From a virus (Duplodnaviria; Caudoviricetes): a DNA stretch of 64,000 nucleotides. Location: the IMG/VR virus record IMGVR_UViG_2882178878_000003, positions 1 to 64,000 of that record, one strand, 5' to 3'. The translations under genes were made by a program, and so were the position numbers. Position 1 is the first letter of the stretch. The number at the start of each line of letters is the position of its first letter. Of this stretch, positions 32,234 through 62,000 are shown piece by piece. The notes below the pieces were generated by a model. That model made no database searches and was not told the DNA's origin. It saw only the letters and a list, made by a program, of their open reading frames with translations.

Positions 32234-32298
32234 GAAATTCAGGGAAATACAACAAATCGGGATGTCAAACAGAGCAGTCAGCAAATAGGGTGGTTAGT

Positions 32299-32790
32299 AT
32301 GAAAAAATCTCATGTAGAAATTGTGCTTGAAGCCATCGAGGATTTACATGCACAAGAACAGATTGTCACACGGGAAACATTGGCTGAGCTTACTCAGTTG
32401 AAATTAACAGTTATTGATGATCGTTTGGCGTATCTGGTGGATTCTGGACAGATTCATCGGGTGCAGCGCGGTGTATTTGTGCCGGCACCAGTGCATAAGC
32501 CAGCCCGTATCATCAGCAAGATTGTTTTGCCAGGTGGCATTGTTAAGCTGGAAATCGGTGATGACTATGTGCTGACACTCACACCACGTGAGGCACGCAC
32601 ACTGGGTAACCTGATGATGGCTGATAGTTTGCAATATGCCAATATTGAGTTGGGCCATCATACTGCAGTGATGTCGAGTGAGTTTGGTGCGCAATTACGG
32701 GAAGTACAACGTACACTGGCCAAGCTAAATGGCGACTTTAAGAAATCCCAGCAGATTGAAAACGCTGAGGCTGCTACAGAACATCTGTAA
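32299..32790 (+). CDS. Winged-helix protein, last early gene; candidate late activator
   Basis: VTRETLAELTQLKLTVIDDRLAYLVDSGQIHRVQRGVF wHTH pattern. Confidence 0.65.
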   Translation: MKKSHVEIVLEAIEDLHAQEQIVTRETLAELTQLKLTVIDDRLAYLVDSGQIHRVQRGVFVPAPVHKPARIISKIVLPGGIVKLEIGDDYVLTLTPREARTLGNLMMADSLQYANIELGHHTAVMSSEFGAQLREVQRTLAKLNGDFKKSQQIENAEAATEHL

Positions 32791-32908
32791 TCCTAATAAA
32801 TCATGCAGGATTGTGTTGGAAAGTGGGAGGCGCTGATTGATGAAACAATCGGCACTGAATTCTTAAGGCTCACTACAGTGGGCTTTTTGTTGCAGTAAAA
32901 AGCCTGAA

Positions 32909-33553
32909 TTAATCAGGCTGATTGTAGTTACTTGTTGATGGCTTTAATGTCCATCGCTTCCATGCTTTTGCTTTGCCTGCCTTGACATTAAGCAACCCGG
33001 CTGTAGCGTTGCAGTATTCTCCGCCCGTACCGCGCTTGCCGCCTGTGCGCTTAAATACGGTGTCAGCAGGGGCAAATAAATGTGGGTTTTGGCGTACAAA
33101 CTCATATAGATTTTTAAACTTGTACTCGGTGCCATCTGGTGAGATAAGCCACCAGTCTACTGCCTGCACATTAGACGCAAACTTGCCAGCAAGTGGACTA
33201 AGTTTAGCGGCCTCAGTTGCCATAATCTGGCCTGCATTGCTGTGTGGTGCACACTGCGGCTTTTTGGTGCCGATGTCCTTGCGTTTTGCCTTGCTGGCTG
33301 CTGCTGGTGCGCCAAGCTCCCAGCGTTTTTTGGCTACTGTGTCGTAAGCCAGTCCAAGATCACGGGCCAGCTCAGTATTGTTTTTTGACCAGTCTGCCTG
33401 TGACCAATCCACTTTGCGCGGCTTTGGTTTAACTGTCTTGCCAAGCTTGGCGCGGTAGGTGTAGATCGTATGCAGCTTAACGCCCATCTTTGCTGCTATT
33501 ACATCGTTGGGCTGGCTCCAGTCAATCGCCAGCCAGTCAGATTTACTTGCCAT
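32909..33553 (-). CDS. Basic protein with two short HTH-like repeats
   Basis: DWSQPNDVIAAKMGV and DWSKNNTELARDLGL; Lys-rich C-terminus. Confidence 0.7.
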   Translation of the reverse strand: MASKSDWLAIDWSQPNDVIAAKMGVKLHTIYTYRAKLGKTVKPKPRKVDWSQADWSKNNTELARDLGLAYDTVAKKRWELGAPAAASKAKRKDIGTKKPQCAPHSNAGQIMATEAAKLSPLAGKFASNVQAVDWWLISPDGTEYKFKNLYEFVRQNPHLFAPADTVFKRTGGKRGTGGEYCNATAGLLNVKAGKAKAWKRWTLKPSTSNYNQPD

Positions 33554-33566
33554 AAATACCGTCAAC

Positions 33567-34067
33567 TTAAATGTTTTTTAGTGCATAGCGCGGATGCTGA
33601 CCACAGGACAATAAAAACATGCCCCAGGTGGTCGGGTGTGGTCGTTGCTCCCCCTTTTCCCAGCGCTGCCAGTTTGAGATATTAACGCCTGCTAACTTGG
33701 CGCATTTAGCCTGAGTGCCGACTTGTTTGCGCAAGTCTTTTATTTGCTCGGGTGTGGGTGGCTCAACGGGCACGTTATCCCATATTTGCACAGGCTGGTT
33801 GTACTCAGCTGCGACTGCATTAAACATGCGCTCGGCGGCCATATCTTTGTCACCACCATTGGTCAGGTGCGCTTGATACCATGTAGCGATTAACGCGCCC
33901 ACATTGTCGGGGTTGGCAAAAATAGCGCGGTCAAGCTGGTTGTGGTCTGCCAGCTCATGGATTGCTGACCAGTTAAATTGCACGTGGCCGGTGTCCTGAT
34001 CGTGCCATAAGCCTAAATCAGCAAAATCCAGATTGTCCGGCACGCTAATTTGTTTTTGTTGTTGCAT
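33567..34067 (-). CDS. Two-domain protein with C-terminal XRE HTH (Aca-like)
   Basis: PTPEQIKDLRKQVGTQAKCAKLAGVNISNWQRWEKGEQRPH; GGAG before ATG 34067. Confidence 0.75.
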   Translation of the reverse strand: MQQQKQISVPDNLDFADLGLWHDQDTGHVQFNWSAIHELADHNQLDRAIFANPDNVGALIATWYQAHLTNGGDKDMAAERMFNAVAAEYNQPVQIWDNVPVEPPTPEQIKDLRKQVGTQAKCAKLAGVNISNWQRWEKGEQRPHPTTWGMFLLSCGQHPRYALKNI

Positions 34068-34111
34068 AGGTTGCTCCAAAAGATAAGCCCCATTGCTGGG
34101 GCCTTGTTGGT

Positions 34112-34378
34112 TTATAGGACTTCGATTGATTCAGGGTTGTCCCAGTCCAGGTTGTCGTCTTCCAGGCGGCCATCTTTGTAATTTTTAAATAACCAGGTTA
34201 CGCGGTATTCATTGCCATCTTTGTCGGTTGCTAGGGCGCTAAACTCATCCCAGTACATTTCACATTCTTCACCGTCTACTTCTTCAGTCCAGCTATCGTT
34301 AAACCAGCCTGCAAATACGCGGTTGGTGCGCTCAGCTTGGTCGGTAAAGGTTAGGTCATTGATAGTAATTGCGTTCAT
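34112..34378 (-). CDS. Small highly acidic protein, candidate anti-CRISPR/DNA mimic
   Basis: 88 aa with 23 D/E, 7 K/R, 5 W; first gene behind a strong promoter; GGAG RBS. Confidence 0.7.
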   Translation of the reverse strand: MNAITINDLTFTDQAERTNRVFAGWFNDSWTEEVDGEECEMYWDEFSALATDKDGNEYRVTWLFKNYKDGRLEDDNLDWDNPESIEVL

Positions 34379-34443
34379 TTTGATTCTCCGCCCGTGTAAT
34401 GCGCTGGGCTTGCGCCGACTGCGTTATCGCTGTCTATGTAGCT

Positions 34444-34472
34444 ATATTACCGCGAATTGCGGTAAGCGTCAA
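34444..34472 (-). promoter_or_regulatory. Sigma70 promoter with overlapping palindromic operator
   Basis: Minus strand TTGACG-N17-TAATAT; palindrome TTACCGC-N5-GCGGTAA at 34447-34465. Confidence 0.8.
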
Positions 34473-34563
34473 CACCTATATTTAATTATTTACTACCGTT
34501 CGTCGGATTTGATCTGATGGGCTTTTTTGTCGCACTTGCATGAGTGTGTGGATTGGAAGAACA

Positions 34564-34605
34564 CCCCTGTAAGGTTCGACACCTCCATTCCTATTGCCTG
34601 ATTAT
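34564..34605 (+). promoter_or_regulatory. Putative late promoter, motif copy 1 (before terS)
   Basis: CCCCTGTAAGG-N25-GATTAT. Confidence 0.6.
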
Positions 34606-34628: not shown

Positions 34629-35327
34629 ATGGCAGACGACAAAACCACAGACTGGAAAAAGATTGAGCTGGATTATCGCGCTGGCGTTAAAAGCTTGCGT
34701 CAGATTGCCAGTGAAAATGGTATTTCGGATACCGCCATTCGGAAGCGAGCCAAAAAGGATGAATGGACTCGTGATTTATCAGCACGTATTCAAGCTAAAG
34801 CAGATGATCTGGTTCGCAAGGATCAAGTTCGCGCTGAGGTTCGCACAAGAACCACTGTTTCAGAGCGTGAGATTGTTGAATCAAATGCTCAGGCTATTGC
34901 TACTATCCAGCTTAACCACAGGAAAGACATTCAACGTTCCAGAAACATAGCCATGAATCTTATGGCTGAACTTGAGCAGCAATCTGGCCTTGATAACGCT
35001 GATTTGCTTGAGCAGCTTGGCGACTTGATGCGCAATGAGGATGACAAAGGGCAGGATAAATTAAACGATTTGTACTGCAAGATTATTTCTCTACCTGGTC
35101 GCGCTAAAACCATGAAGGATCTGGGCGAATCATTACGGGTTCTGATTGGCCTTGAGCGCCAGGCATTTAATATGGATTCTGCCAATATCAATGATTCAGT
35201 TGCTGGTGGTACTGGCAAGCAAATGTCAGATGCTGAAAGGGCTGTTCGCCTATCACGCTTACTTCAATCCAATCCGGATGCATACCAAGCATTATTGGCG
35301 TTAAGAAATGGTGGCAGTAATGGCTAA
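34629..35327 (+). CDS. terS: Terminase small subunit
   Basis: DWKKIELDYRAGVKSLRQIASENGISDTAIRKRAKKDEW HTH; precedes terL. Confidence 0.85.
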   Translation: MADDKTTDWKKIELDYRAGVKSLRQIASENGISDTAIRKRAKKDEWTRDLSARIQAKADDLVRKDQVRAEVRTRTTVSEREIVESNAQAIATIQLNHRKDIQRSRNIAMNLMAELEQQSGLDNADLLEQLGDLMRNEDDKGQDKLNDLYCKIISLPGRAKTMKDLGESLRVLIGLERQAFNMDSANINDSVAGGTGKQMSDAERAVRLSRLLQSNPDAYQALLALRNGGSNG

Positions 35328-39651: not shown

Positions 39652-39834
39652 ATGGCCTGCCGTCCTGAGTGTTGCGCATGTCTGGAAGGGCTGACCCAAG
39701 ACGGGTTGGCCCTGACCAATGCTGACTATGACAAGGCTATGGCCATTATTGAACAGCGCACGGATCTCACTGAAACCCAGCGGGAACAAATGCGCATTTA
39801 TGTCTGGCATTTATTTGATGCCCATAATATTTAA
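39652..39834 (+). CDS. Small hypothetical protein
   Basis: 60 aa, N-terminal Cys cluster; in operon spacing. Confidence 0.55.
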   Translation: MACRPECCACLEGLTQDGLALTNADYDKAMAIIEQRTDLTETQREQMRIYVWHLFDAHNI

Positions 39835-39850
39835 ATGAGAGTACGGTTAT

Positions 39851-40087
39851 ATGTTTAATCCACCTCATGTTGGTGAAGTGCTGCGGGAATATATTGATCA
39901 AACGCCGATTGAGATTGTTGCCAAAGAATCTGGCTTATCTATAGCGCGTCTTTCTGATGTACTGGCTGGAAATACTGCTATTACGCCAGATGATGCTAAT
40001 GGGCTGGCAAAAGCACTTAATACATCGTCACAGTTCTGGTTAGACCTGCAAGCACAATATGAAAGCAAGCAAAGTGCAGATCTGTAG
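39851..40087 (+). CDS. higA: HigA-family antitoxin-like HTH protein
   Basis: PPHVGEVLRE...AITPDDA..LAKALNTSSQFWLDLQAQYE. Confidence 0.85.
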   Translation: MFNPPHVGEVLREYIDQTPIEIVAKESGLSIARLSDVLAGNTAITPDDANGLAKALNTSSQFWLDLQAQYESKQSADL

Positions 40088-59090: not shown

Positions 59091-62000
59091 ACATGACATT
59101 GTTTATTCCAAACATGAAAGCCATGGATGAGTCGATTGATCAAGTTAACGACAAAATGAAATATTTTGAGGGGAAGGCAAATAGCTTTTCGGCCGCCCTT
59201 GCCAAAGAACTAAGTAATATTTCAAATATCCAGTTTGATGAGATTGGCGATGCACCTTCGCTCACTCCAAATAATGGCCTTGATTCCCTGAGTCCAGTGG
59301 TTCTCCCGGAGCTTTCTGCGCCCGACATTGCACCCCCTGTGCTTGACCGACAGGATGTGGTTGCATTATCAACACCCGCGCCGCTTGATATTGCGCCACT
59401 AAATCTAACTATTGAGCAGCCCGTATTGCCCAATCTGGATAATACATTTAATCCGGTAAGTTACACGCCGATTGATGACATTAATCGGATTCAGGCACCT
59501 GAAATAATTGGCGACATCAAAGCTCCAGTAATGGAGTTGCCAGACTTAAAATCCCCACAAGCACCCGCTCTTGTCAATAAGCCAACTATTAATCTAGATA
59601 TCGCTGCACCCGTATTGCCCAATCTGGATAATGCATTTAATCCTGTTGGCTACACAGCCATTAGTGATATCGCTGGCCTGGAAGCGCCAAGAATTGACAC
59701 GGAAATTAAGGGAAGTCATCTAGAGTTGCCGGAATTCAAGACGACACAAGCACCTGCACCACTACAAAGACCAAATGTTAATCTGGATATTGATATCCCA
59801 GTGTTACCTGATCTTCCTAGTCAATTTGCAGAAGTAGCTGAGGATTTTAGCTATGATGCACCATCCATTGAATTTGACACTATTCCTGCCCCACTTAATG
59901 ACGATGTGAATTTTACCAGTAAGTTGCCCACACTGGATATTTCAAATTTGATGGGTGCACTGGATTTTACCCTGCCTGACATGCCGGACGTGCCAGTTGG
60001 TTTTGATATTGCGATGCCAGCTGTGCCAGATATTAATACAGGATCTGCGCCTTTAGCTCCGGCCATTGATACAACCATTAATCTGCCCAGCGCACCTGAA
60101 CTCAACCTACCTGAAATGGAGGCACTTGAGGCAATTGAGTTACCCTCTTTTGAGTTTGAGGGAGTGCCTGAGTTTGATGAGGAAGCACCTGTCTTTGAGA
60201 TTGATGCATCTGTATTTAGTGATATTGACCAGGCGCTGACTGATGCGGTTGAGGTACTATCCAAAGACTACTTTGAGCACAATAAAGATTCAGTCATTAG
60301 TCCGTTGATGACTGAGATTAAAAATTGGCTTGAAGGTGGTCACCCGGGAACAGGATTGCCTGCATCTGTGGAATCCGCATTATTCAACCGGGCTGTTGAC
60401 CGCGAAAGCCAGCAAACCAGACGTGCAGTAAGTGAAGCTGTTAATGAGTGGGCAGCACGTGGTTTCTCTATGCCGCAGGGAATGTTGCAAAAGCAGATTA
60501 GCGCTATCCGTGATGACGCCAGATTAAAATCGGCTGACTTAAACCGTGAAATTATGGTGCAGTCGTTTGACAAGCAGCTTGAACATATTCGCTTCTTAAC
60601 CACCCAAGGTATGGCGCTGGAAAAAATGCGTATTGATTTGTGGACTGCCTACACAGCCAACATGATGCAAGTGGTGCAGCTTCAAGTAGAAAGCAAGATA
60701 AATATGTTAAATGCACAAATCAGTTTATTCAATGCTCAAGCCAGTGCATTTGAAACACTGGTGACGATATATAAAACCAAAATCGAAGGAGCAATTGCCA
60801 AAATTACAGCGTATAAAGCGCAGGTTGATGCACAAATGGCAATTGGGCAAATCAACCAGCAAAAAATAGAGATATTCAAAGGCAAAATCGAAGTGGTATT
60901 GGCCAATGTGGACGTTTACAAAGCTTTGATCCAGGGTGAAAGCGCTCGGTCTGATGCGATTAGGAATCAGATTGATGTTTATAAAACTGAAGTATCTGCA
61001 TATGCCGAGGAGATGTCCGCCCAAAAGGCCAGAATTGATATTTTTAATGCTCAGGTCAATGCAGAAACTGCCAGAGTGGGCATGTTTGAATCAATATCAA
61101 GAAACTATGCCACAACTATCCAGGGAATTGGTGTGCAAGCTGATGTCAAGAATAAGCAGCAGGGGCTAATTATGGAGGAGGCGCGGCTAAAATTACAGGA
61201 ATTTAGCGCACTCATGGATCTTGAAAAGTCGGAAATATCAACCCGACTGGCGATTGCCCAGAACAATACCAATAATTTTGTCAGGCAGGTCGAGTGGGTT
61301 AAGGCGGTTAGCGATCAAAAGTCAAGGAAGGCCGATCTTGAAATGAAGTCACTGGATGCCAAGCAGCGTACAGTCATTGCCAATGCTGATTTACGCGGCA
61401 AGTACGCGGATATCAATTCTAGAATTATTCTTGCCAATGCAGACATGCAGGGCAAGTACATGGATATTAAGTCGCGTTCTGCAATGGCCAAGCTTGATAG
61501 TGAAATGAAGTACGTCGATATCCAGTCACGTATTGATCTGAGTAACGCTGAAATTGAGGCGAAATATGCAGGCATGGATGTACAGGTCAAGACAGCCAAG
61601 CTGGATGCAGACAGTAAAGCACTGGATGCACAAATCAGGGTGGCTACGGCTAATGCTGATTTACAATCTCGTCACTTGGATAATCTGACTAAAGTTGGGA
61701 TTGCCAATGCCGATGCAAACATCAAAGTCAGTATGGCCAACGCAGAAATGCAGGGTAAATATGCAGATATCAATTCCAGAATGGTGATTTCAGGGGCAGA
61801 GTTGCAGGGCAGGTTTGCCGAGATTCAATCAAGAGTAGCAATGGCCAAGCTTGATAGTGAAATGAAGTACGTCGATATCCAGTCACGTATTGATCTGAGT
61901 AACGCCGAGATTGCAGCCAAGTATGCCGATATGGATATCAAGGCTAAAACTGCCAAGCTGGATGCTGATGGCAAGGTATTGGAGGCCAATGTACGCATTG

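Follow-up and report, generated by a model that had tools for sequence, protein, structure and literature searches.

A leftward block of three genes (positions 32909–34472, all on the minus strand) lies in a 64,000-nucleotide stretch of a Caudoviricetes prophage (IMG/VR record IMGVR_UViG_2882178878_000003, positions 1 to 64,000 of that record), referred to below as the window, and we think it is probably an acr–aca10-type anti-CRISPR operon aimed at the type I-C system of the host. As the original prediction had described, the block is inverted relative to its neighbors, with plus-strand genes on both sides, and lies just before terS (34629–35327). Gene 1 (34112–34378, minus strand) encodes an acidic, tryptophan-rich and apparently beta-rich protein of 88 aa that is a candidate anti-CRISPR, gene 2 (34067–33567, minus strand; GGAG ribosome-binding site) encodes a 166-aa protein with a C-terminal helix–turn–helix (HTH) domain, and gene 3 (32909–33553, minus strand) encodes a basic, probably DNA-binding protein of 214 aa. 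The operon is preceded by a sigma-70-type promoter (34444–34472, minus strand) composed of TTGACG at 34472–34467, a 17-nt spacer and TAATAT at 34449–34444, and the arms TTACCGC and GCGGTAA of a palindrome fall inside it, exactly as had been proposed. The promoter had also been called strong. Its match to consensus is unremarkable (9 of 12 positions, and equally common in shuffled sequence, with 4 found versus 2.8 expected), so we keep the label because the −35, the palindrome arms and the −10 are conserved at other loci (L008, L009, L010, L017 and L031) and not because of the consensus. Between genes 1 and 2 is a GC-rich hairpin with a T-rich tail (34085–34104, minus strand), which may act as an attenuator, and a two-way terminator-like hairpin (32901–32919) closes the operon. 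At another locus (L016, 6273–6302) a GC-rich hairpin with an ATCT-type tail likewise follows the homolog of gene 1, and the downstream genes there are unlike those of the window.

The HTH domain of gene 2 (residues ~98–160; 33588–33776, minus strand), predicted from sequence to be of the XRE type, matches Pfam HTH_31 (E-value [E] 1.1e-4), the family listed for Aca10. Its best match among solved structures is PDB 7XI5 (phmmer E 4.5e-8, 36.6 bits, residues 103–155 against 5–58), the dimeric repressor Aca10 of Pseudomonas citronellolis (PMC9410881), and a profile built from 13 relatives finds the same structure with E 2.6e-11. Of three DNA-contact residues of Aca10, Q22 and Q37 align with Q119 and Q134 of gene 2, both of which are invariant in the family, and R44 aligns with Q141. 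Gene 2 is large at 166 aa, compared with ~65 aa for stand-alone Aca10, and has an added N-terminal domain; we therefore refer to an Aca10-family domain and not to an Aca10 ortholog. Close relatives of the HTH occur both as stand-alone proteins of 77–78 aa (L017 and L031) and in fusions, for which there are two N-terminal partner domains that are unrelated to each other.

The N-terminal domain of gene 2 (residues 1–88; 33804–34067, minus strand) had been put forward as new, a claim that does not hold, as the domain is homologous to AcrIC6 (BLASTP against L053:2193–2627, 38% identity over 88 residues, E 9e-19). Locus L053, which was found by searching viral contigs with Aca10 residues, is a P. 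citronellolis locus with a 100%-identical Aca10 and the published operator; our AcrIC6 reference is the gene of this locus named by the published operon order. In L053, acrIC6 sits between an acidic first gene and aca10, and in another locus (L111) an unfused AcrIC6-like gene lies directly upstream of an Aca10 homolog. On the strength of these alignments the N-terminal domain is AcrIC6-like and the HTH belongs to the Aca10 family, and gene 2 is therefore best described as a fusion of genes that are neighbors elsewhere. The Pseudomonas AcrIC6 is reported to be a weak inhibitor of type I-C and I-E systems, with an efficiency of plating (EOP) of about 0.01 (PMC7913775). AcrIC6-like domains, alone or N-terminally extended, are also encoded on conjugative plasmids of Nitrosomonas, Delftia, Cronobacter and Marinobacter (including loci L035 and L037) and in genomes of the order to which the host belongs, and the phage collection searched contained no protein relative of the domain. 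On the Cronobacter IncN plasmid CP078109.1 (L036, 2492–2793) the AcrIC6-like gene directly follows korA and is apparently split across two frames. At its N-terminus the P. citronellolis AcrIC6 is extended by ~45 aa (L053:2193–2320), a stretch that looks by eye like a ribbon–helix–helix, which Pfam does not confirm; if the resemblance is true, AcrIC6-type domains would often be joined to a DNA-binding domain.

The palindrome within the promoter, TTACCGC-AATTC-GCGGTAA (34447–34465), is where the gene 2 HTH is predicted to bind. The window contains a single copy of TACCGC-N5-GCGGTA, where 0.03 copies are expected. At five other groups of loci that encode the HTH (the window was compared with L008, L009, L010–15, L017 and L031), a −35 of the TTG type and a −10 of the form TAAnAn flank wTACCGC-N5-GCGGTAA. 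Across these six loci the arms are invariant and the 5-bp spacer is variable. The mapped Aca10 site, ATACGCTCATTGAGCGTAT, has the same length (19 bp) and identical TAC...GTA positions. Aca10 binds a 19–21-bp palindrome that overlaps the −35 and −10 of the acrIC7–acrIC6–aca10 promoter (PMC9410881). Both elements on which the acr–aca interpretation of the original prediction depended, an Aca-type HTH and a promoter palindrome for it, have thus held up: the HTH is of the Aca10 family, and the palindrome agrees with the characterized Aca10 operator in where it lies and how long it is and is conserved at other loci that encode the HTH. The 5′ untranslated region (UTR) that follows (34379–34443, minus strand), with two small hairpins and a GGAG ribosome-binding site, is likewise kept in the six loci, in which one base pair covaries (CG in 3, GC in 2, GU in 1), and its layout agrees with that described for acr–aca10 operons (PMC13551039). 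The 5′ UTR is conserved although the first genes behind it are unrelated, encoding proteins of 88, 104, 102 or 63 aa or a 215-aa DUF3560 protein depending on the locus. To judge from these sequences, a small repressor gene that stays the same while its cargo changes is what one would expect of an aca gene. In a further locus (L005), located between two terminase genes, an unrelated 81-aa gene precedes a gene 2 homolog, and we did not find a copy of the operator there. In L012 (1055–1073 and 1934–1952), and also in L013 and L015, the operator-bearing promoter occurs twice, ~880 bp apart, and a single Aca10-like fusion may control two operons, one with a 133-aa gene and an HTH_17 gene and the other with a 63-aa gene. 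The cassette of promoter, operator and leader provides a search handle for anti-defense cargo, for which the 63-, 81-, 102- and 104-aa proteins and the DUF3560 protein are candidates.

The host of the prophage encodes the system against which such an operon would be directed. Its genome assembly (3.06 Mb, 88 contigs) contains a single CRISPR-Cas locus, on contig C12, with the gene order cas3–cas5c–cas8c–cas7–cas4–cas1–cas2; all seven genes are full-length and score above curated cut-offs, and all except cas5c cover nearly the whole of their profiles. The array consists of 61 repeats, typical of type I-C with the end ATTGAAAC, and 60 spacers. The original prediction had suggested looking for self-targeting spacers, and 11 of the 60 match the prophage contig (C77). 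Five of these matches, including that of the leader-proximal spacer, are perfect; three have one mismatch, two have two and one has six. All 11 protospacers are on one strand with a 5′-TTC protospacer-adjacent motif (PAM), and the cas operon is intact. Within the window the minus-strand protospacers include that of spacer 11 in terS (35201–35234; one mismatch), those of spacers 29 and 13 (39719–39886; one mismatch each), and those of spacer 14 (two mismatches) and spacers 33 and 15 (perfect) at 60066–61863. Three further perfect protospacers, at C77 67386–67418, 69117–69149 and 71049–71083, lie outside the window; a single 4979-aa open reading frame at the far end of the targeted prophage region (C77 65250–80189; L126:1248–16187, plus strand) is hit by three perfect spacers (16, 55 and 60). 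The right end of the prophage contig is chromosomal, as is the flank of the cas locus, and the two rank five genomes of the genus in the same order of similarity; this speaks against a binning artefact. A repeat of ~123 nt common to the right end of C77 and the left end of C12 is also present at other contig ends; it is probably an insertion sequence at which the assembly broke. We identified no second Aca10-like locus in the host genome. The original prediction had also offered anti-restriction and anti-RecBCD functions, and nothing in our analysis pointed to either.

Gene 1 encodes the protein that we consider the best candidate for a new AcrIC. The original prediction described it as acidic, with five tryptophans, and did not recognize it as a named Acr; we count 23 D/E (26%), 7 K/R and 5 Trp, with an isoelectric point (pI) of 4.05, and the protein has no match in Pfam, PHROGs, NCBIfam or PDB sequences, the databases through which it was compared with Acr proteins (a dedicated Acr library was outside the scope of this comparison), apart from a single chance-level match to DUF6006 (E 0.088). 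A word-based search returned 2 relatives and an exhaustive search 44, which are mostly acidic, 84–100 aa long and share the core TNR-x-F-x-GW...Y-x-DEW...DG-x-x-Y-x-x-x-W-x-F. The AlphaFold model is confident (pLDDT 88) and mostly beta, and a Foldseek search of the PDB with it produced no match with an E of 0.001 or lower. On sequence and model together, gene 1 defines a small family, so far uncharacterized, of acidic and beta-rich proteins. Several apparent leads were set aside. The top structural matches from VIA-align (wide; best Z 4.7) include the anti-CRISPR entries 7ENI and 7JTA, but these are tied with kinases and WD40 proteins and are noise. Weak similarity to the Listeria–Bacteroides repeat (Flg_new, best E 4.1e-5, three members), and that of the family profile to one PDB lectin (E 1.8e-5, with no stretch significant alone), we read as a shared beta-hairpin motif with no clue to function. 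The protein is not AcrIC7, to which it has no similarity (E 0.69), and an Atlas search returned unnamed clusters only.

The original prediction had proposed guilt by association of homologs as a check, and the gene neighborhoods of the gene 1 family differ between loci. In L016 the closest homolog, 68% identical, is encoded two genes upstream of an AcrIF11-family gene, whose product matches NCBIfam NF052490 (E 3.6e-7, profile positions 4–134 of 142) with 31.2 bits against a cut-off of 50 and has AcrF11 as its sole PDB match. This homolog is the first gene behind the promoter TTTACA-N17-TACAAT, which holds the palindrome GGTATA-N4-TATACC, so the promoter has the same design as in the window with a different operator. 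In L017 the same homolog adjoins two Aca10-like genes, and downstream of a more distant relative come two small genes and one for a KorA-like HTH. Several other members sit among anonymous small genes. Genes of 64–75 aa that follow some homologs resemble ribbon–helix–helix proteins by eye, which Pfam does not confirm. Gene 1 is itself the first gene behind an Aca10-type operator and is carried by a prophage, which places it in an aca operon on a mobile element. We judge that the chances of the 88-aa protein being a type I-C inhibitor are evenly balanced; the AcrIC6-like domain, the repeat-like unit described next and an undetected Acr are the alternatives.

A solitary sequence resembling the type I-C repeat (34529–34562, plus strand) is present ~57 bp from the −35 of the operon and is a candidate RNA anti-CRISPR. 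Aligned with the host repeat, it agrees at 24 of 31 positions and needs one gap, a score reached by ~33 of 244,000 genome windows, or roughly 1 in 1,000 for the intergenic region, and its predicted fold, a 7-bp stem from base 3, is that of the host repeat with one compensatory change. No CRISPR-repeat match to the unit was found in Rfam, and we found no clear plus-strand promoter for it. A terminator-like hairpin on its own strand lies just upstream (34498–34522), so that the unit is located between this hairpin and a CCCCTGTAAGG motif at 34564. Genes for RNA anti-CRISPRs (Racr) are known to cluster with acr genes, as does RacrIC1 beside an AcrIC5 homolog (PMC10651486).

A lysogen targeted in this way should die unless its type I-C system is blocked. 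Given that the host has an intact I-C system and five spacers that match the prophage perfectly, we conclude that the survival of the lysogen is very probably due to the operon. We argue with some confidence for an acr–aca10-type operon directed at this system from what is legible in the sequence, namely the homologies, a conserved operator, self-targeting spacers and intact cas genes, and the tolerance of five perfect TTC-PAM spacers alongside an intact cas operon is the principal evidence for an AcrIC. From the same material we infer a scheme of DNA binding, repression, attenuation and inhibition, the last above all by the 88-aa protein. In this scheme, a portable cassette of promoter, 19-bp operator and conserved 5′ UTR would drive three genes. 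On entry of the phage genome the promoter would fire and the 88-aa acidic protein, the candidate main inhibitor, would act on I-C Cascade or Cas3, with gene 2, whose N-terminal domain is homologous to the weak inhibitor AcrIC6, produced at the same time. As the gene 2 protein builds up, its Aca10-type HTH, presumably as a dimer, would bind the operator and lower promoter activity, and the hairpin after gene 1 would probably yield more inhibitor than repressor. Residual expression in the lysogen would keep the I-C system from cutting the prophage despite the five perfect spacers. Gene 3 would be a co-transcribed DNA-binding protein to which the scheme assigns no role.

Several observations weigh against this interpretation. 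Tolerance of self-targeting could result from silent cas genes, from the repeat-like unit or from an undetected Acr encoded elsewhere in the prophage. Opposite R44 of Aca10, on which DNA binding depends most, gene 2 has Gln141, with Arg142 next to it. AcrIC6 is a weak inhibitor (EOP about 0.01; PMC7913775), and its domain may serve the regulator instead. The fold of gene 1 has no significant match to a solved Acr, the best Z of 4.7 being within noise; the anonymous small genes around several members of its family offer no clue, and the family is absent from 73 Aca10-bearing viral loci.

The alternative that survives best, which we regard as unlikely but would give a real share of the probability, keeps the Aca10-controlled anti-defense locus and assigns the 88-aa protein to a different defense system or to an unrelated role; in that case the prophage would owe its protection to the AcrIC6-like domain of gene 2, to the repeat-like RNA or to an Acr that it encodes elsewhere. 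The lack of a named Acr match to the 88-aa protein and the absence of its family from the Aca10 loci just mentioned are consistent with this alternative, as is the identity of its best association partner, since AcrIF11 represents a family of type I-F inhibitors. The AcrIC6 homology of gene 2 and the I-C repeat-like unit close to the −35, reminiscent of RacrIC1 beside its AcrIC5 homolog (PMC10651486), would supply other sources of protection. However, AcrIC6 alone is weak, yet the lysogen tolerates five perfect spacers, and the repeat-like unit has no evident promoter and is preceded on its own strand by a terminator-like hairpin. In aca operons, moreover, the inhibitor is usually encoded first, and here the ribosome-binding site of the first gene is the best one and the attenuator-like hairpin comes directly after the gene.

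Less probable still is that the host I-C system is inactive, through silencing or a subtle defect, and that the operon is a leftover or serves only in the infection of other hosts. Silent chromosomal type I systems are known, such as the I-E system of E. coli K12 (10.1101/2025.05.07.652737), but the seven cas genes of this host are full-length and above their curated cut-offs, the TTC PAM is kept in all 11 protospacers, and the long array with a leader-proximal spacer that matches the prophage perfectly points to recent adaptation. A toxin–antitoxin-like or general regulatory module unrelated to CRISPR, with gene 2 as an MqsA/HigA-like protein and gene 1 as its partner, is very improbable: the HTH does match MqsA (TIGR03830, E 1.8e-6; PDB 3FMY, E 1e-4) and Aca10 itself resembles HigA2 antitoxins (PMC9410906), but the TIGR03830 match covers the HTH only (profile positions 66–121; 27.7 bits, where the cut-off is 61.8), the HTH resembles Aca10 far more closely than MqsA (4.5e-8 versus ~1e-4), residues 1–95 of gene 2 contain no cysteine and hence no MqsA CxxC zinc site, the strongly acidic product of gene 1 has no match among toxin families, Pfam reveals no toxin-like neighbor, and the first genes vary between loci while the HTH is conserved. 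An identification of gene 2 as an MqsA antitoxin thus fails on both the zinc domain and the toxin partner.

Returning to an operon directed at the I-C system, we are cautious about its fullest form, which we offer as a tentative and rather doubtful extension. In that form the 88-aa protein would represent a new family of I-C anti-CRISPRs with an unmatched beta-rich fold, and the locus would be a three-part anti-I-C unit under one operator, composed of a strong new inhibitor, an AcrIC6–Aca10 fusion that both inhibits and represses its own synthesis, and a divergent repeat-mimic RNA. Systems of this kind are known; what is new here is the AcrIC6–Aca10 fusion, of which we found no earlier report in the literature searched, the candidate family of the 88-aa protein and possibly the combination with a repeat-like unit. 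The fusion indicates that neighboring genes of a known operon can merge, and it raises the question of whether AcrIC6 is mainly a domain of the regulator. Type I-C is a common subtype that is used for large-deletion genome editing, and the locus offers a strongly indicated candidate for an AcrIC.

The remaining features of the locus contribute less to this argument. Gene 3 had been described as basic with HTH-like repeats; its product has a pI of 9.9, only weak matches to HTH_29 (E 0.006), HTH_36 and HTH_23 in Pfam, and a match to phrog_323 (E 2.5e-4). A protein-language-model search (Atlas) returned NUMOD, I-HmuI and I-TevI DNA-binding clusters with scores of 0.81–0.84, which we treat as leads only. 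A 47%-identical relative is present in phage record OR148981.1, and none of the related loci contains a homolog; gene 3 is probably a DNA-binding passenger and not a conserved part of the module. On one side of the operon, terS matches phrog_1206 (E 1.7e-70) and is followed by terL and the portal gene. The opposite flank encodes, on the plus strand, a DUF1064-type resolvase and a 166-aa phrog_8117 protein (32290–32790; E 9e-54) with a weak AbiEi-like winged-helix match, the gene for which adjoins the block and converges on the operon terminator. The phage collection contained no DNA relative of the block.

Among known systems, the locus is most like the acrIC7–acrIC6–aca10 operon of P. citronellolis (PMC7913775; PMC9410881; L053). 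The two have in common the order of an acidic ~90-aa gene, an AcrIC6-type domain and an Aca10-type HTH, a palindrome of 19–21 bp between the −35 and −10 with the same TAC...GTA positions, a phage context and a type I-C host. In contrast to that operon, the AcrIC6-like and Aca10-like parts form one polypeptide here, the ~45-aa N-terminal extension of Pseudomonas AcrIC6 is lacking, the first gene has no relation to AcrIC7, the operator arms have another sequence and a third gene is added. The HTH of gene 2 is C-terminal, whereas that of AcrIIA1 is N-terminal. Like gene 2 as we interpret it, AcrIIA1, AcrIIA13, AcrIIA15 and AcrIF24 (PMC9410881) unite an inhibitor and an HTH that represses its own promoter in one protein; they differ in acting on type II-A or I-F systems and in using other HTH families. 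RacrIC1–AcrIC5 of a Bifidobacterium prophage (PMC10651486) likewise combines a single I-C repeat-like unit with an AcrIC-type gene less than 1 kb away, but RacrIC1 is co-transcribed downstream of the acr gene, whereas the unit described here is upstream, on the opposite strand, without a clear promoter and with a match of 24/31. Antitoxins of the MqsA/HigA type share with gene 2 an XRE-type HTH, a conserved P-x-P segment and the design of an autorepressor with a second domain; gene 2 differs from them in having no zinc-binding CxxC domain and no toxin partner, and scores far below their cut-offs.

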